DNA of 64,000 nt from Eledone cirrhosa (lineage: Eukaryota): assembly GCA_964016885.1 (NCBI GenBank), contig OZ024742.1:193254001-193318000 (forward strand), written 5' to 3'. Below, piece after piece: positions 1,720 to 61,963 of the stretch. Every line of letters starts with the position of its first letter. Within the stretch, counting starts at the first letter, position 1. The translations under genes and the position numbers were made by a program. The notes below the pieces were generated by a model, which made no database searches, had not been told where the DNA came from, and saw nothing but the letters and a program-made list of their open reading frames with translations.

Positions 1720-1795
1720 ACATATTACATATATTTCATTATAGATCAGCTCGAGGCATGAACTGACTCTGTAATTTAAAGGTCGTCAGATATAC
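1720..1795 (-). ncRNA. Degenerate hammerhead-like motif (family also at ~4908-4983, 35215-35270, 60350-60420)
   Basis: Minus strand GTATAT-CTGACGA-...hairpin...-GAAA-TATATGT-A-ATATGT. Seven extra unpaired nt lie between core and stem II. Confidence 0.4.
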
Positions 1796-1969
1796 TTAGT
1801 ATATGAATTTGTTTCCGATTCTGAGTGTTCAAATCTTCAGCTATTAGCTATCTACAGAACATGTTAACATCATGTTATTCTAGGCCTGTTCATTGGTTCA
1901 ATTATCTCATCATCATCATCATTATACTCTCGGGGTGGTGGCTGTCTGTATATGTATATATATATATAT

Positions 1970-2196
1970 ATTAAAATAACAGCTTAAAGTTTAAGCAAAG
2001 AATCGCTGCTTTCACCCTTAACGGGATCTTCTGAAACTCAGAAGATCCCGTTAAGGGTGAAAGCAGCGATTCTTTGCTTAAACTTTAATCTGTTATTTTA
2101 ATAAATATTTGCTCTACGGTTCTTATATATTTGATATATATTTATCCTTATCGAGCCCTCTTTGGATTTTAGTCTTCAAATTTATTATTATTACTA
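1970..2196. mobile_element. Family A fold-back element in (TA)n
   Basis: Near-perfect ~64-bp inverted arms (1970-2033 / 2039-2102) plus a unique tail. Same family at 5480, 8790, 12424, 46767 and 53610. Confidence 0.85.
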
Positions 2197-2204
2197 TATA
2201 AATA

Positions 2205-4282: not shown

Positions 4283-4734
4283 CTGAGTTCAAATCCCGCC
4301 GAGGTTAACTTTGCCTTTTATCCTTACGGGGTCGATAAAATAAAGTACCAGTAATTCACTGGGATATTTGCTGGCGTTGTGCCTAAAGTAGAAACAATTA
4401 TATTAGAAAAGAATTTTAACAACTAATTAATCGTAAATGCACGTACCATTGAATATATTACCCCAAATTTATGTTATTTGAGTTTTATTCATCCTCTTGT
4501 TAATTTCTTCTCTCTCTCTCGTAATATTTTTTTATTTTTCTCTCTCTCTTTTTTCTCTCTTTCGTCCTCCAATGTCATTTAAATAAACGGTTGTTTCTCA
4601 ATTATTTACATATTCATTTGCATATTCACACATAAGTTTGAATAATCCCTAATATATTTCCACTATCCAGTGAATTTCCAACCGATAGGGTATGATCTTC
4701 ATGGGTATGTCTATATTTATTAAACAAACTTTGT

Positions 4735-4793
4735 ATTTTATCTGATGAAAGCGCATGTTATCTTGGTTGCCCTTGAAATATATATAATAAAAT
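4735..4793 (+). ncRNA. Type I hammerhead ribozyme (duplicate of 1541-1599)
   Basis: Same stems and CTGATGA/GAAA core as 1541-1599. Confidence 0.8.
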
Positions 4794-5155
4794 AAATATG
4801 GTTTTATAAATATAGTTTCCATTTATTTAATATCATTGTATATATATATATATATACTACAAGGATAAGGAACACTGATTCAGTGTTGCATCATAACATA
4901 TTTGATAACATATTACATATATTTCATTATGGATCAGCTCGAGGCATGATCTGACTCTGTAATTTAAAGGTCGTCAGATATACTTAGCATATGAATTTGT
5001 TTCCGATTCTGAGTGTTCAAATCTTCAGCTATTAGCTATCTACAGAACATGTTAACATCATGTTATTCTAGGCCCGTTCATTGGTTCAATTATCTCATCA
5101 TCATCATCATCATTATACGCTCGGGGTGGTGGCTGTCTGTATATATATATATATA

Positions 5156-5434
5156 AATGAAGTAATTCCATCGGAAAAGTCCAGGAAAAAAGAGTGCTCT
5201 ATGTAGGCAACAGAGCTTAATTATTATTATTATGTAATAAACAACATAAGGCAATTCTTCCATTTACCAGTGGTTTCTTAAAAGCAAAAGGTTTTGCTTT
5301 CAATCATCAGAACGGAAAAAGCTGGTTTGCAATAAACAAACCAGCTTTTTCCGTTCTGATGATTGAAAGCAAGACCTTTTGCTTTTAAGAAACCACTGGT
5401 AAATGGAATAATTGCCTTATGTTGTTTATTACAT

Positions 5435-5440
<6 letters not shown>
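5156..5440. mobile_element. Fold-back hammerhead element inserted in (TA)n
   Basis: ~105-bp inverted arms centred near 5332; absent from the equivalent TA tract (~1949-1970) of the other duplication unit. Confidence 0.85.
5349..5408 (+). ncRNA. Type I hammerhead ribozyme (mirror copy at 5258-5317, minus)
   Basis: TTCCGTT-CTGATGA-TTGAAAGCAA..TTGCTTTTAA-GAAA-CCACTGGT-A-AATGGAA; GUA cleavage triplet. Confidence 0.85.
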
Positions 5441-5867
<427 letters not shown>

Positions 5868-5939
5868 GATAGATATATATATGTATATAGTAATAATAAT
5901 ATTTATATTTATATATGTTTAATATACAATTATAAATAT

Positions 5940-8194
5940 GGAGGGTAGTACTAACTACTAGCCAGCTACCTGTAGGATAACAGACTCAAGGTAGATACAT
6001 GACTGTTGTCGGTGTCACAGACATCATATAGAAAATCGGGAGTTAAAAATGAATGTAATGCTTCAGAAAATACAATTACAAGGAGCATTGGGGAAAAGTG
6101 AAAAATAGGCATATTATGTTTAAGGTAATACATGTGCAAAAGGTGCAAGCAGGAAAATAGGCACAAGCAAAAAAAAGATGTAAGATAGGATAGGTAGAAG
6201 ATATCATAGCATTGGAAATCAGGTAATCTTAAGGGTATATAATGCAAGAGTCAATACAATTAATAAAGGTATATATCATGTAAGAGTTATATTATAGCTG
6301 AAACAAGCATATTTCATGTAGAATGTAAAAGCATGTTACAAGTGTTAGAAATGTTTAACATTTTAAAAATTGCGTGCTATATGGTAGAGAGACATGTTGT
6401 GATAATATGGATATATGTCATGTAAGACGTAATCCAAAGCATGGGATTGAATTAGATAGGTAATTTTCATTCAATAATTTTTAAATTGGAGTAGGCATAT
6501 AGTGAAATATGTTGGATTCAACTAAAATGTATTAACCATGGAATTTTCTTAGTTTTAGATGTAATACTTTTGAGATGTGTATAGTTTATAGATATATGTT
6601 TGTTAAAGATAAATTCCACTGAATTACTGCCCATGTGGTTATAGTAAGTATATTATAGAATGCATTCCTATCTTTAAATTTTCTATTAAGGAATGTTCGA
6701 GTTTGCTTTATGTGTAAGTTTCATTAATAGTTATTAGGCGGTTGAGAAGTCATTAAGTTGTTTTAACGTAATGAATTTAAACAGGAAGTGGTGCTCTCTG
6801 GGGGAGAGTTATATTATTGTAAATTGATTTTATTATCTATTGAAAGTCATTTTTGATTAAGTAGTGTTATAAATTTATATTTATAAATTATAAAATATTA
6901 TAAATGATTATTAATTAAATATTTATTCAAGATATTTGTTATTCTTATCTATTCAAATTGTGTAGAGAGAGTTAAAAAAATGTTATAACAAGATAGGGAT
7001 TTATATTATATATATATATATATTCAGATTGTGCAGAGAGAGTTAACATTTTTTTATAACATCGAGAGAGATTCATATAATATACAATGGAGTAATTACC
7101 GTTATATACACTGTTTTCACCTATTTAATTAGTGTTATATATTGTTTTAGAAGTAAGTATTGAAAGGATATCAGGGTGTCTAAATTCTTTATTTATTTGG
7201 TTATTGAGAAAAAACTAGAATTGTATGAGGTGAGAGATCAAAGAAGGGGTTTATTAATATAAAGCTCGACCTTGTGACGATGATATATGTGTAATGAAAT
7301 ATGTGTAATGATGCTAATTTGATAACTGAGAAGGAATATCGGGCAGGATATAGGTTGGTGTGGTTTGTTTAATTTAAGGTGTAGTTATATAATTACAAAC
7401 ATATAATGGGATAAATTTAATAGGTTAAGATTAGAATGAATAATAGTTCTAGACACAAGGATGCAAAGGTTACAAAATGTGTTAGGTGGTTTATATGAAG
7501 GGGCCTTAGCTATCACTTCCCATTCTAAGGTATATGGTATATTACTTGATTTTAATGAGTGTATGTATGTAGAGAGTGACGTTACATTAATAAGTCTAGG
7601 GTTTCTGACCGAATGGAGGTGCGAATTATATCTGGCCTTAAGTTATTCGCTGTTGAACCTATATAGACTTTCGAAATATAATTAGCAGTGCCAGTACAGG
7701 AGTAGATAATGTTTTAATAGGGCAGCTCTTACTTAATGGGCATGTTCTATTAGGTCTACAAATACAATTATTTTGGTAACTAGTATATTGGTTAAGGGGG
7801 TATGAATTTGAGCGGTTATTTCTGTTTATACTTCTAGTAGTAAGATTATGTTAAGTATTATCATTACCATTGGTATTATTACTATTACTTGTAGTATCGT
7901 CCTGTACTGAGTTATTGTTAAGGTTATTTCTATGTTGGACATTATTAACTTGGTGTACTCTGAAGTAATTTTTAATCTTCCTCTTGTTTCTGTCAGGTAA
8001 AAGTTCTGCGATGTTAGGTGTGGTGGAGTAAGAGATGTTAATAGTATTTTTGTTAAATAGGTTGTGGTATTTATGAATATTTGGGAGGTTTTTGTCTAAA
8101 ATAGAGAAGAAAGCTTTAGCTATGTTGGTTGAGACATTTAAGTTGAACGGAGGATTAAAAAATGTGTTACTTCTATTCTTCTTATGATTATTAT
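5940..8194 (-). mobile_element. 5'-truncated Penelope-like element, second duplicate copy
   Basis: ORF 7851-8204 is nearly identical to 3936-4292; ~120-bp deletion near 7419 relative to the first copy. Confidence 0.85.
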
Positions 8195-8373
8195 CTGAGT
8201 TCAAATCCCGCCGAGGTTAACTTTGCCTTTCATCCTTACGAGATCGATAAAATAAAGTACCAGTAATACAGTGGGATATTTGCTGGCCTTGTGCCTAAAG
8301 TGGAAATAATTATTTATATTATCGTTTTGTGTTAGGTACCTTATTATTTATATTTTGTATATATATATATATA

Positions 8374-8563
8374 TAACGAAGGAAATGTAGTAAGGAACCA
8401 GGTGGACCATAACGCACCAAAGTACTCAATACTTAGGGTAGTAGAGTGGGTAATAGGAACGAGTAGGACCCCGACGGATGAGCTCAAGCCGTTTCGACGG
8501 CTAATTCTGGACGGAATTATCCGTCGAAACGGCTTGAGCTCAGCCGTCGGGGTCCTACTCGTT

Positions 8564-8567
<4 letters not shown>
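8374..8567. mobile_element. Family B fold-back element in (TA)n
   Basis: Inverted arms 8452-8508 / 8513-8567 contain GTCGAAACGGCTTGAGCTCAGCCGTCGGGGT. Family also at 20504, 23604, 25426, 26105, 29810 and 54910. Confidence 0.85.
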
Positions 8568-8785
<218 letters not shown>

Positions 8786-8789
8786 TATT

Positions 8790-8985
8790 GAAATAACAGA
8801 TTAAATTTTAAGCAAAGGATCGCTGCTTTCAGAAGAACCCGTTAAATGATGAAAGCACCGATTCTCTGCTTAAATTTTAATCTGTTATTTTAATAAATAT
8901 TTGCTCTATGGTTTTTATGCATATTTGTTACAGTCCTTATCGACCCCTCTTCGGATTTAGTCTTCATATTTATTATTATTACAAT
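8790..8985. mobile_element. Family A fold-back element (diverged)
   Basis: AAATAACAGATTAAA...TTTAATCTGTTATTT arms and the same tail as 1970-2196. Confidence 0.8.
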
Positions 8986-12767: not shown

Positions 12768-13134
12768 ACATTTTCTACTCTAACCATAATTTTCAGTAGC
12801 CCCACTCCACATAAATTCCACAATTTAAGAATGACCTGTAGTATCTATTTCATACTATTAACCTTAATTGAATATATATCTGACCAGGAATGCTTTTTGT
12901 GAAAATCAGTCATATGGAACTATTATCATCTTGCCTGACGGTTTGAACTTTACAACACTATCTGCCTCTTTTTGAGGTCAAATACCAACCCTACTATCAT
13001 CTACAAACTGACCAATGAGAATTAAAACTATTCCTGTTGACAACATTAAATTATTCCTAACAAGCTCATATGTCCCAATGCTCTGATACCATCATTACTA
13101 TAAACACACAGCTGGCATATCTAAGAACTGATTA

Positions 13135-13192
13135 ACTGCCTGATGAGGTCATAGCCATTCAATGGCTATCATCGAAATATATATATAGCAGT
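13135..13192 (+). ncRNA. Type I hammerhead ribozyme in upstream pseudo-LTR
   Basis: ACTGC-CTGATGA-GGTCATAGCCATT.C.AATGGCTATCATC-GAAA-TATATATATA-GCAGT. The downstream copy (17117-17165) has lost stem III and the 3' strand of stem I. Confidence 0.85.
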
Positions 13193-13382
13193 AAATAAAG
13201 GATTATGAGTTTATGCAATTGACTTATGTTTCGTCACTATTATAACTCCGGAACTTATATCTTCGTTGAGTGCTCCCTATCCGCATACTGAAGTACAGGA
13301 TTTTGCCAACACTTACTTTCTTGCTTACACCCATGTTCCACACCCTGTTGAGCGCTTCATACAGTAGCGGACCCCAGCCAAT

Positions 13383-16030
13383 ATGAATAAACTCACCACT
13401 CTGGCATCACTGAAGGACATCCCATTACCGGGTAAAAGAGAATACACCAGGAATCTCACTAAGAGTACTGACTCCCTAATACGCAGGATGAGGTGGAGGG
13501 CTTACCACTTTGATAGAGGAAACCCCAATATTAATAACCAAAAAACCATGGAGTGCCTCTTCAGATCAAAAAGACCCCCCCCCCCCCCACAACAGACTAT
13601 TGGAAGAGTTCGAGAACTAAATGATTGGCATCATTTCCAACATCAAATTTTCCGACCAACCATACCGGGGTGGAAAGTACCTTAGGCGACTGGAAAATGG
13701 AATTACCGAGCTTAAGGAATCTACATAAATACTCGTCCATACCGACAAATCCAACAACCTTTACAGCATGGACGTTCAAATTTAACGTGAGCTAATCCTT
13801 AGGGAATTGAGAAAAAGCTACAAAAAACACCCGAAGCTACCCTGGAGGATATCCACATCAAGGCTTATGAGATCGTATCTGGTCTTGGTATAGATGATAG
13901 GATAGCCCCATACCAACCACGGGAGCCGAGGATTACCATTAAGGACCACAAACCAAACTTCGAGTCTAACCTGCCGGTCAGACTGATAGCCCCCTCCCGA
14001 TCAGACATGGGGTTATAAGCAAAAGCATTTTTGATAGGATCCTGCCCACACTTAAGAGTAAAATAAGTTTACAACTCTGGTCCTGCACCAGCCAGGTGCT
14101 GGACTGGTCTACATTTTTACCTGACAAACATAGGACTAGCTTCATACAACTAGACATCAACAATTACTACTCCTCTATCTCGCCCATAGTCCTGAACAAG
14201 GGACTCATATTCGCGATGAATAGGACAGACCTAACACGCGACGAGGTCCGAATCATACACGCCGCCAGAAAGACCCTGATCCGATTCGGTGGGGACATAT
14301 TGACCCGGATCGACTGGCCAAATAATGTTGACATTACAATGGGCTCCAGTGACTCCGCGCAGCTAACGGACTTGGTTGGGATATACATACTCTACGAGAT
14401 CAGGAGAGAAATACCCAACCTGGGTGGCGGGCTGTACCGAGACGACGCACTCTTCACCGTAGTGGACCACAACACCACAATGGTCGAAAATATGAAGAGG
14501 AGAATTAGGCACTTCTTTAGCAAGGTAGGACTTGAAGTAGAGATGGAACCCAATAGAAAAGTAGTGAATTTCCTGGACACCACCCTCAACTTAAACACTA
14601 AGTTACACCACCTATATCATAAACCCAATGAGAAGCTTGTGTATATTAACGCTGGATCCAATCACCCTACATCTATAGTTAAGGCCGTAGTTAAGAGTGT
14701 CTCTGACAGGATTTCTAACTTGTCGGCCAATAAAGAGATCTTCCATTGTAACGCTGATTACTATAACTCAGCGCTAGCCAAGGCGTCCCACAGCCATAGG
14801 ATCAGCTACAACCCTAAGGGACATGGTCGAGATGACCCAAGGGTACCCATGACCATACCCTCAGGGGCATGAGTCGCCCACCTAATACCTCGGTGACCAG
14901 TAGTAACACTCACAAACCTCTATCCGTCAACACCTCCGGTAGAATGTCCCGCATAAACCACCAGTCTAATACCTACAACGCTGAAGACCACTGTGCTGTG
15001 GAGCATAGGCACCCCGGCCCCGGCCCCAGCACCCGGCGAACCCTAATTGAGCAGGGAGGCCGCACCTCGCAGGTTTATAGCGTCACGGTGGGCCCATATA
15101 ACCCTCATGACAGTGACCGCTCCGCACACCTGAGTGACACCAACTGAGCTCGACCTGAGCTGTGCACAACCACGCGATGGACCACGGCGGACACCCAACA
15201 ACCCCGCAAGTATAGGACCAGGAAGGTCACATGGTATAACCCTCCGTCCTCGGTGGGTCTACCTACCAGCCTGGCTAGAACATTCTTTAGATTATTGGAT
15301 AAATATTTCCCTAGGGCCCACAAGTACCATAACATATTCAACAGGCACACGGTGAAGCTTTCCTACTTAACCACACGCTCCGTAGCCCAGAACATACCTG
15401 ACATAAATAGGAATAGGCTCACTGCCTCTAATACCACCGTAAACCCCAGAACCAGCCAACAGAACCAGCACGCGGGACGCACCGACTAGCACACCGACTA
15501 GCACACCGACAGGCTCAACTAGCACACCGGAACCCAACGACCCTGTCCTTATTGCGGAGGCTACCCAGCCAACCCCGAGTGATGGTAACCACGCGGTACA
15601 TATGGTGAGGATTAAGAAGTCGTGTAATTGCAGAGACCCATCACTATGCCACCTTAGTAATGAATGCATGACGAAAAACGTAGTCTACAGGTGCAAGGTC
15701 ACAACCCCTAACTCGGAGCACCACTACATGGGATCCACAGCGACGAACTTTAAAGTTCGCCATTCCTTTAACAGAATAGATAAGAGGAAATGTACGGCCC
15801 TTTCTGAATTGATCTGGAAGCTCAAACTTGAAAAGACCCCGCACTCGCTGGTCTGGTCCGTGGTTAGAAAGGTTCCCCCATACAGAGGCGGGTCTGGTAT
15901 TTGCAACCCCTGTCTTAGTGAGACACTCGAGATACTTCATGGCGGAGCCAAGCTATTCAACAGCAGGGCCGACTTATTCGGTGCCTGCAGACACCTAAGG
16001 ACTGCAACTTACCTCAAGCTATATGGATAA
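13383..16030 (+). pseudogene. Penelope-like RT + GIY-YIG endonuclease ORF, frameshifted
   Basis: SLKDIPLP...IRRMRWRA N-terminus; RT motifs QLDINNYYSSI, ITMGSSDSAQLTDLVG, GLYRDD, VNFLDTTL, SNHP; WYNPP; CNCRDPSLC linker; VVYRC..YMGST; CNPCLSE. Split across several frames. Confidence 0.92.
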
Positions 16031-16199
16031 ACCCCGGTTAAGGCGGCCCACAACGCCACCCCCTCTATAGGTCCCCTACACCCCGTACCAATGACCAATG
16101 GACAACAACAAACACCCATAGTTTGTGGTTCCTATGGTGGATGGTCCACCGGATCCTCTACTGGTTAGGAGTCATCAAACCACGTTTTATTGAACCCGA

Positions 16200-16200
16200 T

Positions 16201-16239
<39 letters not shown>

Positions 16240-16350
16240 ATTATATGTATATATATATGTATATATATATATATATTTTATATATATATATGTATATATT
16301 TTATATATATGTATGTATATTTATATATATATATTATATATATATATATA

Positions 16351-16430
<80 letters not shown>

Positions 16431-16580
16431 TATATATATGTATATATATATATATATTTTATATATATATATGTATATATTTTATATATATGTATGTATA
16501 TTTTATATATATATATATATATTATATATATATATATTTTATATATACTTGTGCGTACATATATATATATATATACACAC
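16200..16580. repeat. Degenerate (TA)n microsatellite
   Basis: Directly visible. Confidence 0.95.
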
Positions 16581-17689
16581 CTGTATGGATTTGTGTGTGT
16601 AGATGTGTGTGTGTCTGAGGGGGTAGGTGTGCGTGTATGTACTTGTCTACCAACATAAGCCCTTTATTTCTAAATTTTCTATACTATCTATGTATTTGAC
16701 GCTAACCATTATTTTAAGTATTACCACCACACATTAATTCCTCAATTTGTATGTGTGGATGTGTGTGCGTGTCTGTGGCGGTGGTGGGAGTGTACGGGCA
16801 AGCCAACTTACATAAGTCTCTTTATTTGTAAATGTTCTACTCTAACCATAATTGAATATATATGTGACCAGGAATGCTTTTTTTGAAAATCAGTCATATG
16901 GAACTATTGTCATCTTACCTGGCGGTTTCAACTTTACAACACCACCTGCCTCTTTGAGGTCAAATACCCACCCTACTAACATCTACAAACTGACCAATGA
17001 GAATGAAGTCTATTCCTGCTGGCAACATTAAATTATTCCTAACAAGCTCATATGTCCCAAGGCTCTGATACCATCAACACTATAAATACAGAGCTGGCAT
17101 ATCTAAGAACAGAGTAACAGCCTGATGAGGTCATAACCATTCAATGGCTATCATCGAAATATAAATAAAGGATTATGAGTTCATGCAATTGACTTGTTTC
17201 GTCACTATATATATATATATATATTTAATACATTAACAGAGAAAGCCTTAAGCTATACTCTGATTGGCTTCCATCTCACTCAACAAACATTAGGATATAC
17301 CTTAGTATAATCCCAATTTTACGTTTGGGGTGCTAACTATATGTATTTTGCGGAAAGCCAGTTGTATTATTTTATATGAGACATAATTAAAAAATATCTC
17401 TCTTTCCAAACAATTGTTTCATTATAAGTTTTCTACAAGTTGGGAAAATGTGTCTAGGTTATGTAGAAACCTGCACACATTCCGTAGGAACATATGCAGG
17501 TGGGCACTTATAAATCATCAGTGGATGCCCGGTAAACATCGATATAAGGATTTATATATATACACAAAGGGTGGAAGAACTTCTAAAAGTCAACGGCCAT
17601 CCAAAAGTGTGTAAATTTGTATATGCACATGTACATATGTATGTATATGGGTGCATGTGTATGTATATGCGCGGGGGCATAGAAATAGT

Positions 17690-20503: not shown

Positions 20504-20507
<4 letters not shown>

Positions 20508-20702
20508 CGAAGGAAGTGTGGTAAGGAACCAGTTGGACAATAACGCACCAGAGTACTCAATACTTAGGGTAGTAAAGTGGGTAATAGGAAATTGTATAAC
20601 TCCGACGGCAGAACTCAAGCCGTTTTGTCGGCTATTTCCAGACTCTTGAAATAGCCGTCGAAACGGCTTGAGCTCTGCCGCCGGGGTTATACATATTCCT
20701 AT
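20504..20702. mobile_element. Family B fold-back element
   Basis: Same tail and hairpin as 8374-8567, TA-flanked. Confidence 0.85.
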
Positions 20703-22843: not shown

Positions 22844-22847
<4 letters not shown>

Positions 22848-23538
22848 AAGAATTACTATATCTAGTAACATATATATACACAGATGCATACTTATGCTAG
22901 CAAATATATAGGTTTTGTCTTAGTAACTTTGTGGTTCAATGCATGGGGATGCAGAACAATAATATGAGAGACGTAAAATAAGAAAATTATAAAATTAACT
23001 TTCTTACTAAAATTTCACTCCAACTAATTAGTTTCTGAAAGGGAATAAACATTCTTTCCGAAGAAACGTACGGAGAAGCCTTTCGTCATCAGGGAAGTCT
23101 ATTCTCAGCTAAGTTTCCAAGCAATACGTGGACACAGGGAACTTATCAAAAATAATTCAGTGGATGGAAAAAAGCAAAGCGTGGACTAGATTCCAAGCCA
23201 TTGAGAAAATCACTGCCTACTGCGTCGGTGACAAATTCAAAAGAATCAATCACGTGACATCGAGGTCAATCAGTGGAGAGTGGTTTGTTAAGAAGACAGC
23301 AGCCGGACTGTTACTAAAGTAGCAGTTTTGGCCAATTTTTCCTCGACAAATAATTTGGAGATAATTATAAAGAATTAGTATATCTAGTAACATATATATA
23401 CACAGATGCATACTTATGCTAGCAAATATATAGGTTTTGTCTTAGTAAATTTGTGGTTCAATGCATGGGGATGCAGAACAATAATAAGAGAGACGTAAAA
23501 TAAGAAAATTATAAAATTAACTTACTTACTGTTAACTA

Positions 23539-23542
<4 letters not shown>
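22844..23542 (-). mobile_element. Non-coding hammerhead element with ~522-nt period (retrozyme-like)
   Basis: Direct repeats 22844-23019 and 23366-23542, TA-flanked, with an internal hammerhead. Confidence 0.7.
23017..23098 (-). ncRNA. Type I hammerhead ribozyme with long stem II
   Basis: ACTTCC-CTGATGA-CGAAAGG...CCTTTCA-GAAA-CTAATTAGT-T-GGAGT; palindromic stem III. Confidence 0.65.
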
Positions 23543-25184: not shown

Positions 25185-25529
25185 TAGTTAGTACGGTGAA
25201 AATCTGGTGTTGGTACCAAATCGATATACAATAAATATTTTTCATATGTAAACGAAACTTCCTCGTTTTTTCTATTATATATATATACATGAATTATGTA
25301 TAACATATTTGGCAATATAACGAATGTTTAATTAAAAACATTTAGAAGACCATACGCTATCAGTTATATATATACATATATATATCTATAAATACATTAT
25401 ATATATATACATATATATATATATATAGGAACGAGTTCCTATTACCCACTCTACTACCCTAAGTATTGAGTACTTTGGTGCGTTATGGTCCAGCTGGTTC
25501 CTTACCACATTTCCTTCGTTATATATATA

Positions 25530-25930
25530 CAGGGTGTTCGGGATAAATTTGACAGCTTCATCAGGAAAAAGAAAAAGTGCTTGGTATCTACAAAATTTAT
25601 TTGATTTAAAAGAAATTCAATGGACAAGGAAATTACACTATTGTCAAAGAGTTTTACTCAAAATAACCGCCATTAGCGTCTATTACAGCCTCAATCCGGG
25701 CCCAGAACCTGGAGCAAGCTGATTTTACACTTTCCCTGGGAAGGCCCTCAAAAACTACTTTAATTCTGTCGATTAACTGGGCTTTTGTAGTACTGGCACG
25801 GCGATTGGTGTCTTTCTCTACAGCGCCCCATACATAATAGTCCATGGGGTTAAGATCAGGGGAGTTCGGAGGCCAAACATTGGGACTGGTGTAGTCGTAA
25901 AACTTGGCTGACAACCATTTTTGACTTTTC
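25530..25930 (-). mobile_element. Tc1/mariner-superfamily transposon 3' end
   Basis: WPPNSPDLNPMDYYVWG...VIDANGGYFE*; terminal sequence TA|CAGGGTGTTCGGGATAAATTTGACAG. Confidence 0.9.
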
Positions 25931-26125
25931 CTCCCCCTCCCCCTCCCCAGTATCTTCTTTGACCTCATGCCCAGCTGTAGCTGGCACTACCAACGCTTGA
26001 TTGGGTCTACTCCACCCCCTCCCCTCTTTCTCCTACTGGCAGGTTTAGCCACCATCTCCCCTACTAATTTGCAATCACAGAATTACTACTGACTTTTGAC
26101 AATCACTTTCACCATATATGGAATT

Positions 26126-26250: not shown

Positions 26251-27118
26251 ATATTAGAAAAATCGAGTATCGAAAAATCGGCGCACGAGTTCACGATAAA
26301 CAATATTCGAAATGAGCGGCAGAGGGCTCAATAATTCAGATGAATCAGAGCTATAACTATCGTTAAAATACCGTCACATATAGAACAAGTCTACAATCAA
26401 CCATACGATAAAAAATCGATAATAGAAGATTCGGGACAAACAGATAAAAAATATCAATAAAACAATACATCAATAATTTAAATGAATGTAAAATCATACC
26501 CGGACCCACTAGAAAGGTGTTAAATCTAGCTTCTTGGGTTTCTGTAAATCCTTAGACTGTACTCTATCAGCTCACATATAAATATAAAAGCCTACTAGAG
26601 CAAGGGGAACGGAGTTTACTTCATCAACGAGCTTTTTTCCTAGCGGATAAGGGGCTAACCACCAGTGAAAAACGCACATGGCATTAGACAAGGGAGATAA
26701 CCTCTACATCCGCGAAAACTATTCGAGGAAATGTGGAAATACACATATCGAATAAGAGTGCTCAATAGACATGTTAAAATAAAACAAAAGCTATTCATCA
26801 CTCAATAGAATCGACAAAAAATGAGCAATAACATTAACTGGTGGATAGCTATGTCCAGAGCTAAAAATATTAGAAAGATCGAGTATCGAAAAATCGGCGC
26901 ACGAGTTCACGATAAACAATATTCGAAATGAGCGGCAGAGGGCTCAATAATTCAGATGAATCAGAGCTATAACTATCGTTAAAATACCGTCACATATAGA
27001 ACAAGTCTACAATCAACCATACGATAAAAAATCGATAATAGAAGATTCGGGACAAACAGATAAAAAATATCGATAAGACAATACATCAATAATTTAAATG
27101 AATGTAAAATCATACCCG
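26251..27118 (-). mobile_element. Non-coding hammerhead element with 616-nt period (retrozyme-like)
   Basis: Near-identical direct repeats 26251-26502 and 26867-27118, TA-flanked. Diverged relative at ~32460-32745. Confidence 0.75.
26498..26632 (-). ncRNA. Hammerhead-like motif with long stems II and III
   Basis: GCTCG-TTGATGA-AGTAAA...TTTACA-GAAA-CCCA...TGGGT-C-CGGGT; C3U without G8 compensation, possibly decayed. Confidence 0.6.
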
Positions 27119-35357: not shown

Positions 35358-35364
<7 letters not shown>

Positions 35365-35716
35365 GTGAGGTTTTTTTATAAAATGAAAAGTAACCGAGGT
35401 GTCCTACACGAGTGAAAGTATAAAGAAAACAAGATGAAATCGAAAATGCAATTGGAGTCTTATTTTTTAAAAAATATATATATTTATTTGGTTCCATTAC
35501 CGGTTTCGCTGTTCTTCTGCTTTTCAAAAGTAGAGTTGAGATGGAGGGTCTGTGGTTTTCCTCACAGATGTGAGAACAATCAGAGACTCTCCATCTCAAC
35601 TCTACTTTTGAAAAGCAGAAGAACTGCAAAACCGGTAACGGAACCAAATAAATATATATATATTTTTTTAAATAACTCTCCAGTTACATTTTCAATTTCA
35701 TCTCGTTTTCTTTATA
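35358..35716. mobile_element. Family E fold-back element (UUGAAAA hammerhead)
   Basis: Inverted arms centred ~35570, TA-flanked; family also at 59660-59880 and 59932-60300. Confidence 0.85.
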
Positions 35717-35731
35717 TATATGTATATATAA

Positions 35732-35822
<91 letters not shown>

Positions 35823-35825
<3 letters not shown>

Positions 35826-36637
35826 TTCAAACCCAAACTTGACACTAAGTGATCCCCTGGAGTCTAATGCACTTTTCCTTCCTATTCTGTAACGCGTTCA
35901 TGCACTCCTGGAAGGATTCTTCCGCGATCCCCCGCAGTTCCGTTGTGACGGCCTTTTTGATATCGTCCACGTCTTCAAAACGGGTCCTCTCCGGGTCGTA
36001 CTTGAAGATCCATGACTCATCAGCGGTGATGATGACTGTCCATAGCAAATCTGGTTCTGTTTCAAGGCACTCGAGGATTTCCTGGCACAATTGCATGCCT
36101 CGACCCTTCTGGTTATCGTTCAGCACTTTTGGGACCGTCTTCGCGCAGACTTTCCGCATGCTCAAATCTTCAGTGAGAATCTTCCAGACGCTTCCCGATT
36201 CATGCCCAGCTCATTTGCCATCAGTCGAACAGTCAGCCGACGATCGCTACGCGCCATCTGCCTGACGCGCTCAACGTTGACCTCAGTCCTGGTTGTTGAG
36301 GGCCTTCCGCTCCTGAGGTCATCTTGCACCACTCGAAAACAAGTGACATCTCCATACACTTGCTGTAACAATCCCAGTGCTTCTGACGGAGTTTTCCCCA
36401 ACCGTACCAGGAACTTCAAGTATGTTTGTTGCTCTGTGCTCAATGCTTGACGACCTGAAACAGAGGATATGTATATCAAATTATGAACAAAAAAGTTTGA
36501 TCGCCGCAGAGAGCTAATATTACAGTTACATACTCCAGGGGGTTTACTTTGAAGGAGAAAGCTCTTAGTGTGAAGTTTGGGTTTGAAATACATATTTTGT
36601 GTCATTAGTCCTGGAACTTTTCTAACACACCACGTAT
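35823..36637 (-). mobile_element. Internally deleted mariner transposon
   Basis: EQQTYLKFLVRLGKT...RSGRPST...DRRLTVR...MRKVCAKTVPKVL...ITADESWIFKYDPE; subterminal inverted repeats 35823-35849 / 36565-36591. Confidence 0.9.
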
Positions 36638-36734: not shown

Positions 36735-36735
<1 letters not shown>

Positions 36736-37086
36736 GATATTAAACAAATGGAAACTATATTTATAAAACCATATTTATTTCGTTATATATATTTCAGGGA
36801 TATCATATTAAAAATATGGTATGCCTTCCTCAGACAAAATACAATACATAAGCTGTTTTATAAATAATTTTTGACATACCTTTTAAATAATGCAACTTCC
36901 ATTTAAAAAGTTTTTAAATGGAAGTTGCATTATTTAAAAGGTATGTCAACAATTATTTATAAAACAGCTTATGTATTTTATTTTGTCTGAGGAAGGCATA
37001 CCATATTTTTAATATGATATCCCTGAAATATATATAACGAAATAAATATGGTTTTATAAATATAGTTTCCATTTGTTTAATATCGT
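36735..37086. mobile_element. Fold-back element with two mirrored hammerheads
   Basis: ~175-bp near-perfect inverted arms centred ~36910; tail shared with 1600-1645. Confidence 0.9.
36980..37043 (+). ncRNA. Type I hammerhead ribozyme (mirror at 36777-36840, minus)
   Basis: ATTTTGT-CTGAGGA-AGGCATACCATATT.TTT.AATATGATATCCCT-GAAA-TATATATA-ACGAAAT. Confidence 0.8.
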
Positions 37087-37208
37087 AAACCTACTCCAGA
37101 AACTGTTGAGTGCTTTTATATCAGTTATAAAATATTTACTCGTTGTAACCCAACAATCTTAAATAAAACTTTTGCATATATATATATATATATATATATG
37201 TATCTGAA

Positions 37209-40885: not shown

Positions 40886-40919
40886 TATATATATATATAT
40901 AAATATATATATATGAATG

Positions 40920-41515
<596 letters not shown>

Positions 41516-48705: not shown

Positions 48706-49065
48706 ACCACATAAAACCATACATCTTCTATATTGCGCCCACACGAACACTAACATAGCCATTTGAATTTTACGTCATTGAATTATTTATTGAATACCCT
48801 TTAATAAAGAAGCATTTAACACGCTATAGTTTTAATGGTATCTTCAAACTTTTCCAAGCGCCTGAAGATTAGGCAACAAATTTGATCGCTCTTACAATCT
48901 GGGGAGAGGGTCATATTTGGGGCTTGAAACCTCAGGCAGCCCTTTTACTCCCTATATGAACATAAATAAATCATGTAATATATCTCATACCTGATTGATC
49001 ACTGTTCCATTTTTCATTTTTCACATCCAAACACCCCCACCATGAATATATATATATATATAGAG

Positions 49066-49350
49066 ACAGAGAAAATTGAGGTTGGTAATGGCACATGGAA
49101 TATATAAGAGACAGAATACTTTTTTGTGAAAAAACATATAATTTTATAAGGTAAGGAAAGAATAAAGGGTATAAGAAATGACCGGTTTCGATGGGTCTGC
49201 AAAAGCCATCTTTTCAAATGTTGACCCATCGAAACCGGTCATTTTTTATACCCTTTATTCTTTCCTTACCTTATAAAATTATGTTTTTTCACAAAAAAGT
49301 ATTCTGTCTCTTATATATTCCATGTGCCATTACCAACCTTAATTTTCTCT
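49066..49350. mobile_element. Fold-back element carrying a UUGAAAA hammerhead
   Basis: ~130-bp arms. Minus strand 49176-49221 reads TTGAAAA-GATGG..CCATC-GAAA-CCGGT-C; stem I is weak. Confidence 0.8.
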
Positions 49351-52300
49351 ATAACCTTCGTTTTGTGTAGAAACTTACACTTTTCATATATATATATATA
49401 TATACACGCACACATACATGCAAGCATACATACAGAGACACATATGTAATATATGCATATATATATGTGTGTATGCGTGTATTTATATATATATACATAT
49501 AAGAGAGACAGAGGGTGAGAGAGAGAGGGAGGGTGAGAGAGAGGGCGGTGAGAGAGCGAGGGAGTTGTGAGTGTGAGGAGATAAGTACATGTCCATATAA
49601 TGGATTGCAATGTAGGAAGTGACATACAGACATATATTTGGTAAATGGCATTTTCATAAGATCGAAAAAGAAAGTATTCAAACTGCCAATCAAAATCTCT
49701 GAACATCTCTTATATGACCATTCCTTCTTTCTGAATGTACACTTGGGATATTATATAACATCCTGTTATGGCATATATCAACCGCAATGAAATGTCAAAA
49801 GCTACAAACCCACTTCATAATCGAATGTAAACAAAAGAACCCCCCGCCCTCTTTCAAACGACATATAGTGAGATGGAATCGGTTTCATATGCAATTTTTT
49901 CAAGATATAACTTTATTAATGGATTTCTAGTCTAGTAGATTTGAGGAAAAGGTGATGCGGCTGGTGAAAATATCTTACAGTATTTATTTTCGAGGATTTG
50001 ACTTTCAGAGGTTAAATTTCACTAAAGTCAACTTTGCTGTTCCTTCAGTCTAACGGCTCGATGAAGTAAAGTAGCATATAATATGCTATAACTGGAGTAT
50101 TGTGGATAGGTCTGTGTATAATCAATGCAACGAAAGATAAGTGCGAAGGTCAAAAGAAACATAACAATCAAAAAAGAACCTTCATGTAACTATTGTCAGC
50201 CAAACAATGTGACCTTCTATTTCAGTTTTACTTTATCGTTTATTGTGATATCACCAATAAAATCTTCTAAATTATTTTCCTGTGACAATTTAATCGAAAA
50301 TAAGTTTATTCGAAAGGTTTTAGCCATATAACATGTCAAATAGAAAATCACTACGCGGATGATCACCTTGCTGGAATTCGCAGGTAATTATCTGCTAATC
50401 ACTCTAATGGATAAATTATCCCCTTTATATATTATGCTTAACAATCATACGACTAAAACATATATATATTAAACCTACTTACAGTTCCTTCGTGACCTGG
50501 GGATTAATTGAAAAATGTATAGACTGACCAAGATACTTTCCTGGAATGACCAAACGAGGTTTATCTTTCAACACACTTCCTGAAAAGAAACAATGCAGTC
50601 ATTAATAAGACGAGTTAAAATTAATGCGTGTAAGATTTCACAGCCCTAGCATCAATCCATCATAATCATCCTATGAATCTTTCAGCTCATCCTCCTACTT
50701 CGAAATGAAGTACACAAAATCATTCCAGCGAAGACCACATTATTCAATACGTTCGTGAATCTTTTGAATGTAGGTTAGATTTGAGTAAGATTAGACTTCG
50801 ATGTCTAGCAAATTGAGTGAATACGTACAGTAGATACTTTCATATTAACTTAGCTGGATACTTTCTAAACTTGGCATGAAACCAAAGCTTGAGGAGAAAT
50901 ATATATTTGATTAAATCGTCTCCAGAAAGTTATTTAAAATAGAAATTACAAAGCCTCTCCTATACGGTATTGTATTACACAAGGAATTTCATTTGCCTAA
51001 AGTATAATTCAGTTTGCCAATCGAATAATTCATTCAAAACTATTTAATTTCTGCTATAACTCAATTCATAATTGTTGTAGTAACAAAAGGAAAAAAGAGA
51101 TAAAAGCAAATACATAAAAAAAAATATTTTTTTAACAATGAACGATTTTTGAAAACAATTTATTTTTAAAGCAATCTAACTTTTTGTTTAGTTTGCAACA
51201 GTTATAACCCCAAAATCTAAATGCTTTTTAACATTCTATTAAACTTAATATTCAAATTATCATTTTTAATATAATTGACAACGGTAATGATGAATTTAAT
51301 TGCTCCATAATAGCATTACGGAAAGCACAAAATCAATAATTGATATTAGCTATTATTGATGATTTTTTTCATTTTTTCCACTCGATAAAGAACACGGTGT
51401 TGTTTTCCTAATATCAATTTTAACAAAGCGCATTTTGAATCAGTTTATTACAGTGGAATGTTGCTGTTGATAATATTATAACAACCCAGAGAGAGATACT
51501 TTTGAGCAAGATTTTTATAGTATAATGCCATCATTATCTAGACACCACATTCACCTCAGTTGACAAATTAACTATGGATAATCACAAACAAATATACACG
51601 ATTATACAAACAGGCTTGAGCAAACTTAGTAATAGGCCTAGGCGTGATGAAAAAGGTAGCTTTTACCCAATTCCTGGTAATATACACACTCCTGAAGTGT
51701 AACGTAGCCTTTCCGGCTGGTAACTGGCCATAGTTATAGATATGATGTAAAATGAAGGCCTCATTTCAATCTTCTCATCAAGTATTTTAGAAAATAGGAA
51801 TAAATACATGTAATATATGCAGAGGTTACATGTATATACATGTACATGTAGTGTACATCACAGAGGACACTCACTATTGAGTACAACATGGTATGTACCC
51901 ATGCAGTTGCAAGCAGACAGAGATACACACCTGACCCGCATTCATCGGATTCAGAGGAACATCCAGGATTTCACAGGTAGTAAAACAAAGGACTGCATTA
52001 CCAGACGTAACAGAACGGAAGAAAAGATAAAAGAACTAAGACTTGAGGTTAGAGACCCTTCTAAAGTTCGTAGGTTCATAACGACTAACCAACATGCAAT
52101 TGTCGTTGAAGGCGGACACAGTCGATGTTATGACTCTGACAAGCTCACACTATCTCTCTCTTAGCGTTGTTGTCGCTGGAAATTGACCTTTCAACGATCA
52201 TTGCCTTGTTAACCCACATGTTCCCTCTATTTAGCTTGCTTACTTGACAGTTCGTGTCCATAGAGTTAATAAATTCATATGTAGTTTTCGAATTGTTCTA

Positions 52301-53160: not shown

Positions 53161-53605
53161 ATATTGTTATACTTTGGGAGGGTCATGTTGCCAATAAGAA
53201 ACACACGCACCAGTTGCTTTCACTTCAATTTATTATATATTTATAAATTTACAAATTCATAAATCTATAAATTTCTGGTTGGTTGGTTGGTTCCACAACC
53301 AGATAGTTGTTTATATATAGTCATAGTCCTTTCGTCACGCACTCTGTGACCTCTTCAGTGCCTGGGGATTCCTTTCTTTGTCTCCGTGCCTCTCCCTTGT
53401 TCTGTCCTACGCCATTTTGTTTCTGTGTGTGTGTTGTGTGCTCAGTTTGCGCTTATATATATATTATAAATATATAATAAATTTGAAGTGAAAGCAACTG
53501 GTGCGTGTGTTTCTTATTGGCAACATGACCCTCCCAAAGTATAACAATATCGGTTTCAACACACGATTTCAGATAAAGAATCTTGCTAAACAAATTCAGA
53601 AACGA
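53158..53605. mobile_element. Family G pseudo-LTR fragments in inverted arrangement
   Basis: 53160-53250 is inverted at 53455-53550. Minus hammerhead-like CTGAAGA-GGTCAC..GTGAC-GAAA at ~53319-53362. Same family as 57795-58815. Confidence 0.75.
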
Positions 53606-55142: not shown

Positions 55143-56335
<1,193 letters not shown>

Positions 56336-56661: not shown

Positions 56662-56849
56662 ATGATGTGTTGTTATGGAGCCCATCGCATGAAGCAAGAA
56701 ACGCTGGTCGTCCCGAGAAGACATACGTCAAGCAACTTGAGGACGATACTGGATGCACTGTGCGGATGAACTGGCAAACGCTATGAGAGACAGAGATGGA
56801 TGGAGGAAACGTGTCGTAGAAAGCCGAGCAAGCTCGACCTGATGATGAT
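56662..56849 (+). mobile_element. RTE-like LINE 3' end
   Basis: DVLLWSPSH...GRPEKTYVKQLEDDTG...AMRDRDGWRKRV followed by a (TGA)n tail. Confidence 0.8.
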
Positions 56850-56951
56850 ATATATATATATATATACACATACATATATTTATATACATCTCTCTATCTA
56901 TCCACCTATCTATCTATCTATCTATCTATATATTGGCCTTGTGGCTAATAA

Positions 56952-56990
<39 letters not shown>

Positions 56991-56993
<3 letters not shown>

Positions 56994-57720
56994 ATGTATA
57001 TATAATGTATTTTGCAATACACTTTATGCTTAACTAAAAGCATTTTGAAGACCGTAAGCTATTGTTTTTTAGAGTAGTGACAAATTCACTTACTTTGATC
57101 TCAGCAAACAGGGGAATAAGCCGACAAGGCCTTGTTTCGCTTTTGTTGAAGCTTATCAAGACTAACTACTCCGACCTGTCTACCGAGATCACTAATGTTA
57201 TATTCTTATAGAATTCTAGTAAATAATCAGGAGCTGATTATACAGAGCGGTTGTTGGTCAGGCAGAAATTAAAAATTAGAATTGGAGCTCTGAAATAGCA
57301 ATATATATATGGATGTATATATAATGTATTTTGCAATACACTTTATGGTTAATTAAAAGCATTTTGAAGACCGTAAGCTATTGTTTTTTAGAGTAGTGAC
57401 AAATTCACTTACTTTGATCTCAGCAAACAGGGGAGATAAGTCGACAAGGCCTTGTTTATTTACTAGAATTCTATAAGAATATAACATCAGTGATCTCGGT
57501 AGACAGGTGGGAGTAGTTAGCCTTGATAAGCTTCAACAAAAGCGAAACAAGGCCTTGTCGGCTTATCTCCCCTGTTTGCTGAGATCAAAGTAAGTGAATG
57601 TGTCACTACTCTAAAAAACAATAGCTTACGGTCTTCAAAATGCTTTTAATTAAGCATAAAGCGTATTGCAAAATACATTATATATACATCCATATATATA
57701 TTGCTATTTCAGAGCTCCAA

Positions 57721-57727
<7 letters not shown>
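56991..57727. mobile_element. Family I: 319-nt tandem hammerhead unit with fold-back arm
   Basis: GGATGTATATATAATG at 56992 and 57311; 57455-57727 is the reverse complement of the unit. TA-flanked. Confidence 0.9.
57519..57563 (+). ncRNA. Type I hammerhead ribozyme, U3:A8 core (mirror at 57119-57163, minus)
   Basis: AGCC-TTGATAA-GCTT.CAACAA.AAGC-GAAA-CAAGGCCTTGT-C-GGCT; all three stems pair perfectly; GUC triplet. Confidence 0.88.
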
Positions 57728-57794
<67 letters not shown>

Positions 57795-57796
<2 letters not shown>

Positions 57797-58815
57797 AATT
57801 TGTTTAGCAAGATACTTTATCTGAAAACGTGTGTTGAAACAGATAGTGTTATGCTTTGGGAGGGTCATGTTGCCAATAAGAAACACACGCACCATGTGCT
57901 TTCACTCCAATTTAGTATAAATTAAATTCATAAATTTAGGAATTTGTAAATTTCCAGTTGGTTGGTTGGTGCCACAACCAGACGATTGTTCATATATTGT
58001 CAAAGTTCTTTGGTCACACATTTTGTGACCTCTTCAGTGACTGGGGATTTTTTTCTTTGTTTTTGTGCCTCTCCTTTGTTCTGTCCTACGCCATCTTGTT
58101 TTTGTGTGTGTTGTGTGCTTAGTTTGCGCATGTGTTACATACGAGTGTCTGTGTGTGTTTATATTTGTTTATTTATTTGTTTATTTACATGTTATTGGTT
58201 GGTTGTTTGTTCTATGTGTGTATGTGTGTTTTCATTTTGTCCTTAATTGTAAGTTGTAATGTTGTAATTCCATTCAGGTTGTCTATTTAATTTGGGTTGG
58301 AGTTCCTTTATGTTTATTGCCTCTGTGATTTGTCTAAACATTGCGTCTGTTATGTATGTAGATTCAATTTTTATTTCTATGTTCTCTAATTTACCCTTAT
58401 GTTCTATTTTAGCAGATGAATCTTTTCTATCTTGAAGCTCTCGCCAGTGTTCATTTATCCGTTCTCCTATACTACGAGCTGTCTCACCTATGTACACTAT
58501 ATTCCTATCTCTACATTGTCCTTCAGTATATCTTATGCTATATACTACATTTCTAGTTTTACAGTTAATATGAAAACACACACACACATAGAAAAAACAA
58601 CCAACCAGTAACACGTAAATAAACAAATACATAAATAAATAAACAAATACAAACACACGCAGACACCCGGATGTAACACATGCGCAAACTAAGCACACAT
58701 CACACACAAAAACAAGATGGCTTAGGACAGAACAAAGGAGAGGCACAAAAATAAAGAAAATAATCCCCATTCACTGAAGAGGTCACATGATGTGTGACGA
58801 AAGAACTGTGACAAT
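57795..58815 (-). mobile_element. Truncated Penelope-like element with GIY-YIG fragment and inverted pseudo-LTR (family G)
   Basis: CKTRNVVYSI...VYIGETARSIGERINEH...RQITEAINIKELQPKLN at 58243-58563. Pseudo-LTR 57995-58240 is inverted at 58570-58815, with hammerhead-like CTGAAGA...GAAA at 58770-58812. Confidence 0.88.
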
Positions 58816-58911
58816 ACCGGAAATTTATTATTTTCTATTTAATTTTTAATAAACATAAATGAATTAATACCAAAATAAAATAAAATAAAATAAAATAAAT
58901 TAAATTAAATT

Positions 58912-59931: not shown

Positions 59932-59936
<5 letters not shown>

Positions 59937-60293
59937 AAAGTGATGTAATAGAAAATGCAACTGAAGTCTTATTTTTTAAAAAATTATATATATATTTATT
60001 TGGTTCCTTTACCGGTTTCGCAGTTCTTCTGCTTTTCAAAAGGTGAGTTGAGATGGTGGTTTTTCTCACATCTGTGAGAAAAACCACAGATGTGAGAAAA
60101 ACCACAGACCCTCCATCTCAACTCACCTTTTGAAAAGCAGAAGAACTGCGAAACCGGTAAGGGAACCAAATAAATATATATATTTAAAAAAAAAATAAGA
60201 CTCTAGTTGCATTTTCGATTTCATCTCTTTTTCTTTATACTTTCACTCGTGTAGGACACGTTAGTTATTTTTCATTTTATAAAAAAACCTCAC

Positions 60294-60300
<7 letters not shown>
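59932..60300. mobile_element. Family E fold-back element
   Basis: Inverted arms centred ~60080, TA-flanked. Confidence 0.88.
60006..60043 (-). ncRNA. Minimal hammerhead, U3:A8 core (mirror at 60126-60163, plus)
   Basis: CCTT-TTGAAAA-GCAG.AAGAA.CTGC-GAAA-CCGGT-A-AAGG; ACCGGT palindrome as stem III. Confidence 0.8.
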
Positions 60301-60562: not shown

Positions 60563-61393
60563 AATATATATATGGATGTGTGTGTGCATAGATTAACCCC
60601 CTACTCCCACAAAAAAAAGAAATGAATAATGCGGTCTGCTAGTCTGCAGATTGATTATAACATTCGACACTTTAAAAATTTCAAAACTACGCAGGCCATT
60701 AATTGTTGTAAATTGCGTATATATAAGTGTTTGATATCGCCTGTTATAGTTGGGAGAATGTTTGTATTTAAGTATTTTGGATTCCTTATTTTTTTAACAT
60801 TGTTTTCGTATACTTTCTCACATAAAGAAACTATATTCTGCAAATTTTTCTTCCTCGTTCTATTCACTACAGCAACTAATCATGAATCTGTGAAATTATG
60901 CTTTTTTCAACATTAAACAAATAAATAATAAATCTATAAATTTTCTATATCGTCAATAATTAGATATTGAAATTTCAAAAAAATATGAAAAACCCATTAG
61001 GAACCCTTTAAATAATCAATTAATTAGATTATCACCGGGAAGTGTGTAGCTAATTTGATAGTGCATGGTTTACTGGATAGCATGTTTCGGTCAAGATTGG
61101 ATGATCGTGATTACGGTTTCTGGTTGCGACAAAAGGGTATTTTACTTCAAGTTAATCCAAGCCACCTCGAATGTGAAATTCCGTTGTAACTGGAATTCAC
61201 AAGACAAGGATTGACACACACTGTAACACGTGGAATTTCCCTGAAAATTACGTTAGTAAACATGCAACGCAGGAATGCTTAGCCACTGGCACCTTAATTT
61301 AAAGTGTAGGCCGTTACCTTGCTTGACCAACAGTAACACACATCCTCCAAACCACTGGATTTCGAGCGAACACAACACAGGCCTTATATAAAT

Positions 61394-61963
61394 TAATTGT
61401 TTCTTTTTTGGCACAAGGCCAGAAATTATCCAGTGTATTACTGGTACTTTATTTTATCGACCCCGTAAAGATGAAAGGCAAAGTTAACCTCGGTGGGATT
61501 CGAACTCAGACAATATAGGGCCGTAACTCTTTGCTGCAAAGCATGGCATCCGACCCTCTACCGATACTGCCAATAGGCGTTATATGAATTAATTGTTTTT
61601 ACTTTTGGCACAAGGCCAGCAATTACTCAGTGTATTACTGGTACTTTATTTTATCGACCCCGTAGGGATGAAACGCAAAGTTAACCTCGGCGGGATTTGA
61701 ACTTAGAATGGCAAGGGCCGTAACTCTATGCGTCAAAGCATCGCGTCCCAACCTCTACCGATACTGCCAATCCATCGCCCTAGGCGTTATATAAATTAAT
61801 TGTTTCTACTTTAGGCACAAGGCCAGCAATTACCCGGTGCATTCCTGGTACTTTATTTTATCGACCCCGTAAGGATGAAAGGCAAAGTCAACCTCGGTGG
61901 GATTTGAACTCAGATCGTAAAGGGACGTAACTATGCTAGAAAGTATGGCGTCTGACTCTTGCC
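61394..61963 (-). mobile_element. Three consecutive SINE copies
   Basis: Units 61394-61574, 61590-61780 and 61797-61963, each preceded on + by GGC(G/C)TTATAT(A/G)AATTAAT. Confidence 0.9.

Follow-up and report, generated by a model that had tools for sequence, protein, structure and literature searches.

In the 64-kb stretch of Eledone cirrhosa DNA analyzed here (hereafter, the window), the locus at positions 56982-57727 is very likely one insertion of a non-autonomous, retrozyme-type element with a 320-nt unit that was mobilized in trans by a (TA)n-targeting Penelope-like element (PLE). The locus bears on which enzyme moves animal retrozymes and on whether the hammerhead ribozyme or an RNA circle joins PLE transposition. 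PLE mobilization of retrozymes has been argued from co-occurrence and pLTR similarity (bioRxiv 10.64898/2026.07.22.740005; PMC7229834), and animal retrozymes have already been argued to be non-autonomous PLE derivatives (bioRxiv 10.64898/2026.07.22.740005). A non-coding hammerhead unit with a whole PLE scar provides direct sequence support for such mobilization. The literature searched, in which subscription journals are thinly covered, gave no description of a PLE scar on a retrozyme or of a cephalopod retrozyme. The word "tail" does not occur in the available text of bioRxiv 10.64898/2026.07.22.740005, the supplements of which may bear on this point.

The window is AT-rich (2-kb bins mostly 26-39% GC). 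Its 87 (AT)n tracts of at least 14 nt and numerous dispersed direct and inverted repeats give it the look of animal DNA rich in repeats, with a microsatellite landscape reminiscent of cephalopods. On the minus strand of the locus, a full non-coding unit (57300-56982; GC 34%) follows a 5'-truncated upstream copy of 157 nt (57457-57301), such that the two form a pLTR-like partial tandem of about 1.46 units. The 3' end of the full unit is flush and tail-less, running into the left (TA)n target tract (56956-56991), the final 10 nt of which are the same as the unit's own (AT)5 end. The partial copy starts 15 nt before its own GUC site, inside helix III of the hammerhead, and has no catalytic core; the predicted cut in this copy is between 57443 and 57442. 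At 57456-57457, the tandem meets an inverted 5'-truncated arm (57456-57727, plus strand, about 272 nt) that is sense outward. This head-to-head junction has no spacer and a microhomology of 2 nt, with four of five positions matching over a longer stretch. When aligned to two consecutive units, the inverted arm extends from about unit position 74, via the hammerhead, to 26 nt beyond the unit boundary. The last segment of the arm (57692-57727), with (AT)5 (10 nt) and 26 nt of the next unit's start, is a PLE-type tail found at one end only, and its length is 26-36 nt depending on where the (AT)5 is assigned. Both 3' ends of the locus abut (AT)n, and the right target tract (57726-57794) also borders the 3' end of another, unrelated PLE-like fragment, which has a GIY-YIG piece.

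These observations agree with the initial annotation, which had described about 1.45 direct minus-strand units, an inverted arm that crosses the unit junction, and nearly identical copies. The differences amount to 4/157, 7/246, and 4/157 aligned columns. In the part common to all three copies, each copy has two private changes, as expected if the copies began alike and then drifted. The annotated unit length of 319 nt is correct for the full unit itself, which has a 1-nt deletion (a C missing next to 57115 and present in two of the three copies). However, the period from cleavage site to cleavage site, and the length in the register of the other copies, is 320 nt, a value that comes from a single locus. 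The longest stop-free stretch in the unit is 57 aa, with one sense ATG, and this absence of an ORF rules out a coding role and points to a non-autonomous, retrozyme-type passenger of a PLE. Within the 64-kb window, the only relative of the unit is a diverged 81-nt segment (25281-25360, minus strand; 79% identity over 81 nt) that corresponds to the unit's 3' end and likewise terminates at the flush site, within a short AT run. A plasmid blastn search with the unit gave no match. A scan for bacterial promoters and terminators, which was made for bacteria rather than for animal DNA, remained below shuffle level, and a candidate TATA/initiator upstream of the ribozyme was dropped after inspection by eye because of unconvincing spacing.

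The insertion signature is that of a PLE. PLE insertions have been described as a partial tandem with an adjacent inverted 5'-truncated copy, with a 30-40 bp tail, often on one end only, and with a (TA)n bias and no discernible TSD (PMC8557442). At this locus, we found a partial tandem, an adjacent inverted 5'-truncated copy, a one-sided tail, a (TA)n target, and a hammerhead in the terminal repeat; a TSD is unreadable due to the (AT)n target. In vitro, PLE cleavage and extension occurred on both strands with AT-rich targets, and the tail was traced to two internal RT start sites (PMC11167929). The overrun past the unit boundary is such a PLE tail. Because this kind of tail is produced by two fixed internal RT starts and because the layout recurs, the junction-crossing arm needs only a template longer than one unit and not a circle. 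The initial annotation had proposed that both arms were copied from a circular or multimeric RNA; the non-coding type I hammerhead repeat and a template of more than one unit remain valid parts of that proposal, but the junction crossing does not point to a circle.

The same layout was found at other loci in the window. There are 22 short-range inverted pairs, including two that belong to the 320-nt locus. Among the other 20, eight have the tail asymmetry under a strict rule (one arm at most 5 nt from (AT)n and the other arm 35-94 nt away), and two further pairs fit on inspection (10/20); the remaining 10 did not fit or were taken no further. The 3' ends are fixed within families. In one family, the tail end is the same in 4/4 and the flush end in 3/3 of the copies compared, and in two additional families both ends agree at two loci each. 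The ten asymmetric inverted (AT)n insertions include 5156-5703, 8376-8983, 20507-20702, 35359-35741, 36735-37175, 49063-49385, 55196-55812, and 59934-60299. Their tails are family-specific (35-94 nt), and several far exceed the reported PLE tail length of 30-40 bp. Three of these insertions (55196-55812, 59934-60299, and 35359-35741) have hammerhead-like motifs with U3:A8 cores and a minimal helix III; the 55196 family has an altered GAAA box and nonetheless keeps the layout. Fixed internal priming predicts fixed ends from linear and circular templates alike, so circularly permuted genomic copies, which had been suggested as a test for a circle, are uninformative; ends are fixed in three other families of this window.

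Short non-coding partial tandems also occur elsewhere in the window. The one at 40915-41413 (minus strand, between (AT)n tracts) has a 310-nt period with 88% identity; its hammerhead at 41349 has a canonical core, and a second copy is decayed. Those at 22844-23541 (minus strand, 522 nt) and 26251-27118 (616 nt) lie between (TA)n tracts; a hammerhead-like core is present at 23092 in the former and was not found in the latter. This genome seems rich in such units, with hammerhead-like motifs in those of 310, 320, and 522 nt within 64 kb. The 320-nt locus is ordinary for its genome, and its layout does not demonstrate a circle.

The events that led to this insertion may be outlined as follows. 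A source array elsewhere would provide an RNA longer than one unit, either a linear multimer or a ribozyme-made circle. Cleavage of an (AT)n tract on both strands by the PLE GIY-YIG endonuclease would leave two 3'-OH ends, each of which would serve as a primer for the RT. Synthesis would start at either of two fixed positions within the template: site A would be at the unit's (AT)5, and site B would lie 26-36 nt further downstream. The flush 3' end of the full unit would represent site A and the end of the tail (57727) site B. One cDNA would cover about 1.46 units and end where helix III of the upstream ribozyme meets the core, and the other would stop after about 272 nt. Joining of the cDNA ends via microhomology would then generate the head-to-head inversion with a tail on one side. 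The layout, the target, the missing ORF, the recurrence of the layout, and the fixed ends were observed directly, and from these we infer the rest of the mechanism. Among the points against this explanation, site A and the target share 10 nt of sequence, whereas PLE priming in vitro proceeded without homology (PMC11167929). The 5' truncation of the tandem arm (57457, minus strand), at this same helix III/core boundary, lies 15 nt past the cleavage site in the RT direction and is perhaps a structure-induced RT stop.

A descriptor search identified type I hammerhead motifs with U3:A8 and GUC at 57523-57559 (plus strand) and 57159-57123 (minus strand). The corresponding hammerhead domains are located at 57491-57587 in the arm (core 57523-57529, predicted cut 3' of 57559) and at 57096-57191 in the full unit (core 57159-57153, predicted cut 3' of 57123), with the boundaries of the latter transferred from the inverted arm by alignment. 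The domain contains a 17-bp outer stem, helix I, a U3:A8 core, a 4-bp helix II, and a 12-nt palindromic helix III. The conserved core of a type I hammerhead (3:8 pair, GAAA, NUH, and three helices) is present in two copies, which gives one complete hammerhead per strand; the tandem has a single complete ribozyme because the partial copy begins inside helix III. U3-A8 is a known natural variant of the hammerhead (PMC4209133; PMC3088659). The descriptor, which was composed after the motif had been seen and misses some other motifs, found 11 cores in the window and 0-1 per shuffle (20 and 30 shuffles). At the gathering threshold, Rfam gave no match anywhere in the window; its sub-threshold matches were to HH9, with 22.2 and 20.3 bits (gathering 52; E 0.0082 and 0.033). 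The ribozyme had been annotated as the cleanest in the window, which holds for the combination of a GUC triplet and a perfect palindrome (2/11 window motifs) but not for folding, as the monomer is predicted to misfold by 6-7 kcal/mol.

The 106-nt hammerhead domain folds at z -4.5, with 0/200 shuffles equally good; the 75-76-nt cores alone are unremarkable (z -0.97 and -0.24). The outer stem includes three G-U pairs, and its antisense version is 14.5 kcal/mol weaker, which favors the sense RNA. The predicted cost of the active fold in the monomer arises because one half of the helix III palindrome is taken up in pairing with the helix I strand and the core. The nine other motifs in the window have predicted costs of 4-10 kcal/mol, so the motif of the 320-nt unit is not the best monomer. 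A canonical 3:8 pair is predicted to lower the cost from 7.2 to 4.2 kcal/mol, such that U3:A8 would add about 3 kcal/mol to the lock. For the dimer, the MFE structure is a double hammerhead with a 12-bp helix III (-90.3 vs. 2 x -42.2, or -84.4 kcal/mol). These models predict a ribozyme that is locked in the monomer and becomes active on forming a double hammerhead, so that cleavage would take place in multimers and would spare monomers or circles. Frog retrozyme dimers have also been predicted to be active, and 8/9 were without cleavage in vitro (bioRxiv 10.64898/2026.07.22.740005).

For the RNA of this locus, a single swapped hammerhead is predicted for the tandem part alone (pair probabilities 0.8-1.0), and its cleavage could release no more than the 15-nt leader; read-through with the inverted arm would give a long dsRNA hairpin without any swapped-hammerhead pair. 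For these reasons, the locus probably cannot release a monomer, and this copy is probably a dead end. The suggestion that it would be the best experimental entry point suits the family better than this particular locus, with its one complete ribozyme per strand and its predicted dsRNA on read-through.

Two further features were noticed post hoc. First, helix I of the site-to-site monomer contains a U-A pair formed by the unit's T (57161) and the private A of the partial copy (57441), a pair that also lies in the double-hammerhead register. The chance of such a compensatory pair is about 0.002 by simulation, for a single case. The helix I variant with U-A (not C-G) is bounded by two cleavage sites and flanked by pieces of the other variant, and the switch between variants falls inside the 37-nt ribozyme core. 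A doubtful reading of this pattern is that the locus records, in fossil form, an RT that copied across monomers processed by the ribozyme. If it is true, in that the genome has both variants and chimeras that switch at the cleavage site, PLE enzymes would copy cut-and-rejoined retrozyme RNA, circular or ligated. The family would then combine a self-locking circle active only in dimers with a direct PLE integration scar, possibly with two circle sizes (320 nt unspliced and 197 nt spliced). The other feature is a possible 123-nt spliceosomal intron (57590-57712, plus strand), proposed from consensus sequences, with a candidate donor (57590) just after the ribozyme hairpin and a candidate acceptor (57712) just past the unit boundary. 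Their joint chance is roughly 0.004, an arithmetic value from background rates. Donors were found in 3/10 arms scanned and were absent in 7/10. PLE 5' UTR introns offer a precedent for an intron at a repeat/body boundary (PMC8557442).

The topology of the template deserves separate consideration. Reverse transcription passed a cleavage site three out of three times, so the template was uncleaved or re-joined. The layout alone fits both a linear multimer, which we regard as the more probable form, and a circle, which is somewhat less probable. A tentative alternative is that both arms were copied from a covalently closed circRNA of ~320 nt by read-around reverse transcription, still with PLE enzymes. 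This would fix only the topology and is compatible with PLE mobilization. The size and GC content of the unit fit animal retrozyme circles (PMC7229834), and circles have been proposed as templates of PLEs (PMC4209133) and retrozymes (PMC7229834). The passage of cleavage sites, the compensatory pair (57161/57441), and the predicted self-locking of the monomer, as a stable circle would require, are also in line with this alternative. However, an uncleaved linear multimer would yield an identical layout, and in vitro hammerhead cleavage is dispensable and uncleaved RNA is the dominant substrate (PMC11167929). Furthermore, a circle copied 1.46 times predicts identical repeats, yet the tandem has G at 57121 and A at 57441. 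Outside of the ribozyme domain, the unit has only modest structure (z -2.5; 60% paired vs. 56% in shuffles), which speaks against a circle; a rod-like, viroid-type circle was rejected.

The two remaining alternatives conflict more with the data. The unit could have come from an autonomous PLE, as its terminal repeat, and a one-off internal deletion or an RT template jump would then account for the 320-nt period. The observation of this period at one locus only, the PLE 5' UTR-like placement of the candidate splice sites, with the donor following the ribozyme and the acceptor beyond the unit boundary (PMC8557442), and the reported derivation of retrozymes from pLTRs (bioRxiv 10.64898/2026.07.22.740005) are consistent with this origin. 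Nonetheless, it is improbable given that the unit has no coding remnant and that its 6-bp helix I and 4-bp helix II have canonical proportions, unlike the PLE minimal type. In addition, the three other short partial tandems (310, 522, and 616 nt) between (AT)n tracts indicate that such units propagate in this genome. Lastly, a DNA-level foldback, replication template switching, or an assembly artifact would involve no RNA step. The AT-rich, palindrome-prone surroundings and the 2-nt junction microhomology would suit such an origin, and PLE structures of this kind are known to trouble assemblies (PMC8557442). The private substitutions in each copy are unlike an assembly duplicate, and both arms are sense-outward into (AT)n, with family-fixed ends and a one-sided tail at 8-10 loci. 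This possibility, which we consider very remote, is already largely refuted.

Compared with known systems, the 320-nt element combines the workings of a non-LTR retrozyme with the insertion mode of a PLE, a kind that is already known. Animal non-LTR retrozymes have a 150-450 nt non-coding unit, a type I hammerhead, GC below 50%, head-to-tail repeats, and co-occurrence with PLEs (PMC7229834; bioRxiv 10.64898/2026.07.22.740005). The 320-nt non-coding unit, with its 34% GC, type I hammerhead, and 1.46 head-to-tail units, has the properties of this class and is retrozyme-sized, in support of the annotated correspondence to the size range of animal retrozyme circRNAs. An "active" retrozyme locus has two consecutive units with complete hammerheads (bioRxiv 10.64898/2026.07.22.740005). 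In contrast, the locus studied here has one complete ribozyme per strand and a partial copy without a core, and is thus a dispersed copy rather than an active locus. It also carries the full PLE scar (inversion, tail, and (AT)n), which was not found among the retrozyme descriptions in the available text of PMC7229834 and bioRxiv 10.64898/2026.07.22.740005. Moreover, animal retrozyme circles are mostly predicted to be free to fold into the active form (PMC7229834), whereas the 320-nt monomer is predicted to be self-blocked.

With EN+ PLEs such as Hydra, Neptune, and Naiad (PMC8557442; PMC11167929), the locus has in common the partial tandem, the inverted truncated copy, the one-sided tail, the microsatellite target, a hammerhead 130-170 nt upstream of the 3' ends, and a possible 5' UTR-type intron. 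Unlike these PLEs, the unit has no RT or GIY-YIG ORF and is about 320 nt rather than about 3 kb, and its autonomous partner was not found in the window. PLE hammerheads have U3-A8 cores and occur as opposite-strand pairs 100-700 bp apart with dimer action (PMC4209133). The U3-A8 core (also PMC3088659), the palindromic helix III, the opposite-strand pairs a few hundred bp apart, and the predicted dimer action are shared by the 320-nt locus. The differences are the 12-nt perfect palindrome, the canonical sizes of helices I and II, the 17-bp outer stem, and the predicted contribution of U3:A8 itself to the monomer lock. The Chlamys elements, such as MRC1, are likewise non-coding PLE passengers with pLTRs and head-to-tail copies, but they are algal and most of them lack canonical hammerheads (PMC8557442).

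A candidate for the type of helper is the near full-length, frameshifted, PLE-like ORF-bearing element at 12859-17213 (plus strand). This element has a YRDD motif, which we take to be the RT core. Its terminal repeats bear hammerheads and are 89% identical; the 5' repeat continues into the body, and the 3' repeat has a flush end in (TA)n. A single 759-aa protein matches both the RT-like and the nuclease-like pieces of the element, and the RT-like ORF has three unnamed homologues. The element's motifs RWR, YRDD, and CxCx5C fit the description of Hydra in PMC8557442. Pfam found no RT family for the RT-like ORF or for the two homologues scanned, and a PDB search with the PLE-like proteins of the window gave no match, so the PLE/Hydra label is based on motifs and layout. 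This element also has a possible intron between the ribozyme and the start codon, with similar-looking donor and acceptor. Among seven ORFs of the window, the only Pfam match was GIY-YIG at 58246-58770 (E 2e-4, just under the cutoff), and none of 13 candidates was a homologue of this neighboring piece. The PLE-like fragment that contains it (57796-58816) has inverted repeats and a hammerhead-like core, with a related copy near 53161-53597, and is separate from the 320-nt element yet ends in the same (AT)n tract. No RT or GIY-YIG ORF exists in the 320-nt unit, which sets it apart from an autonomous PLE. No autonomous partner was identified in the window: of ten other elements aligned to the unit, eight scored within the range of shuffles, a ninth was borderline (42 vs. 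a shuffle maximum of 40), and the tenth is the 25281 relative. In the large direct duplications (96-98% identical) at 1090-8313, the plus strand has hammerheads and the minus strand PLE-like ORF pieces.

Several remnants of other types are present. A frameshifted coding-like remnant at 56670-56850 (plus strand) ends in a short TGA repeat and presumably resembles the 3' end of an RTE-type LINE. Two ORF fragments on the minus strand (25654-25986 and 35845-36210) have motifs that we assume to resemble those of Tc1/mariner transposases. A ~200-nt repeat with a B-box-like word forms a 2.8-copy tandem at 61373-61959 and has more than 10 dispersed copies in the window; we presume that this repeat is possibly a SINE.
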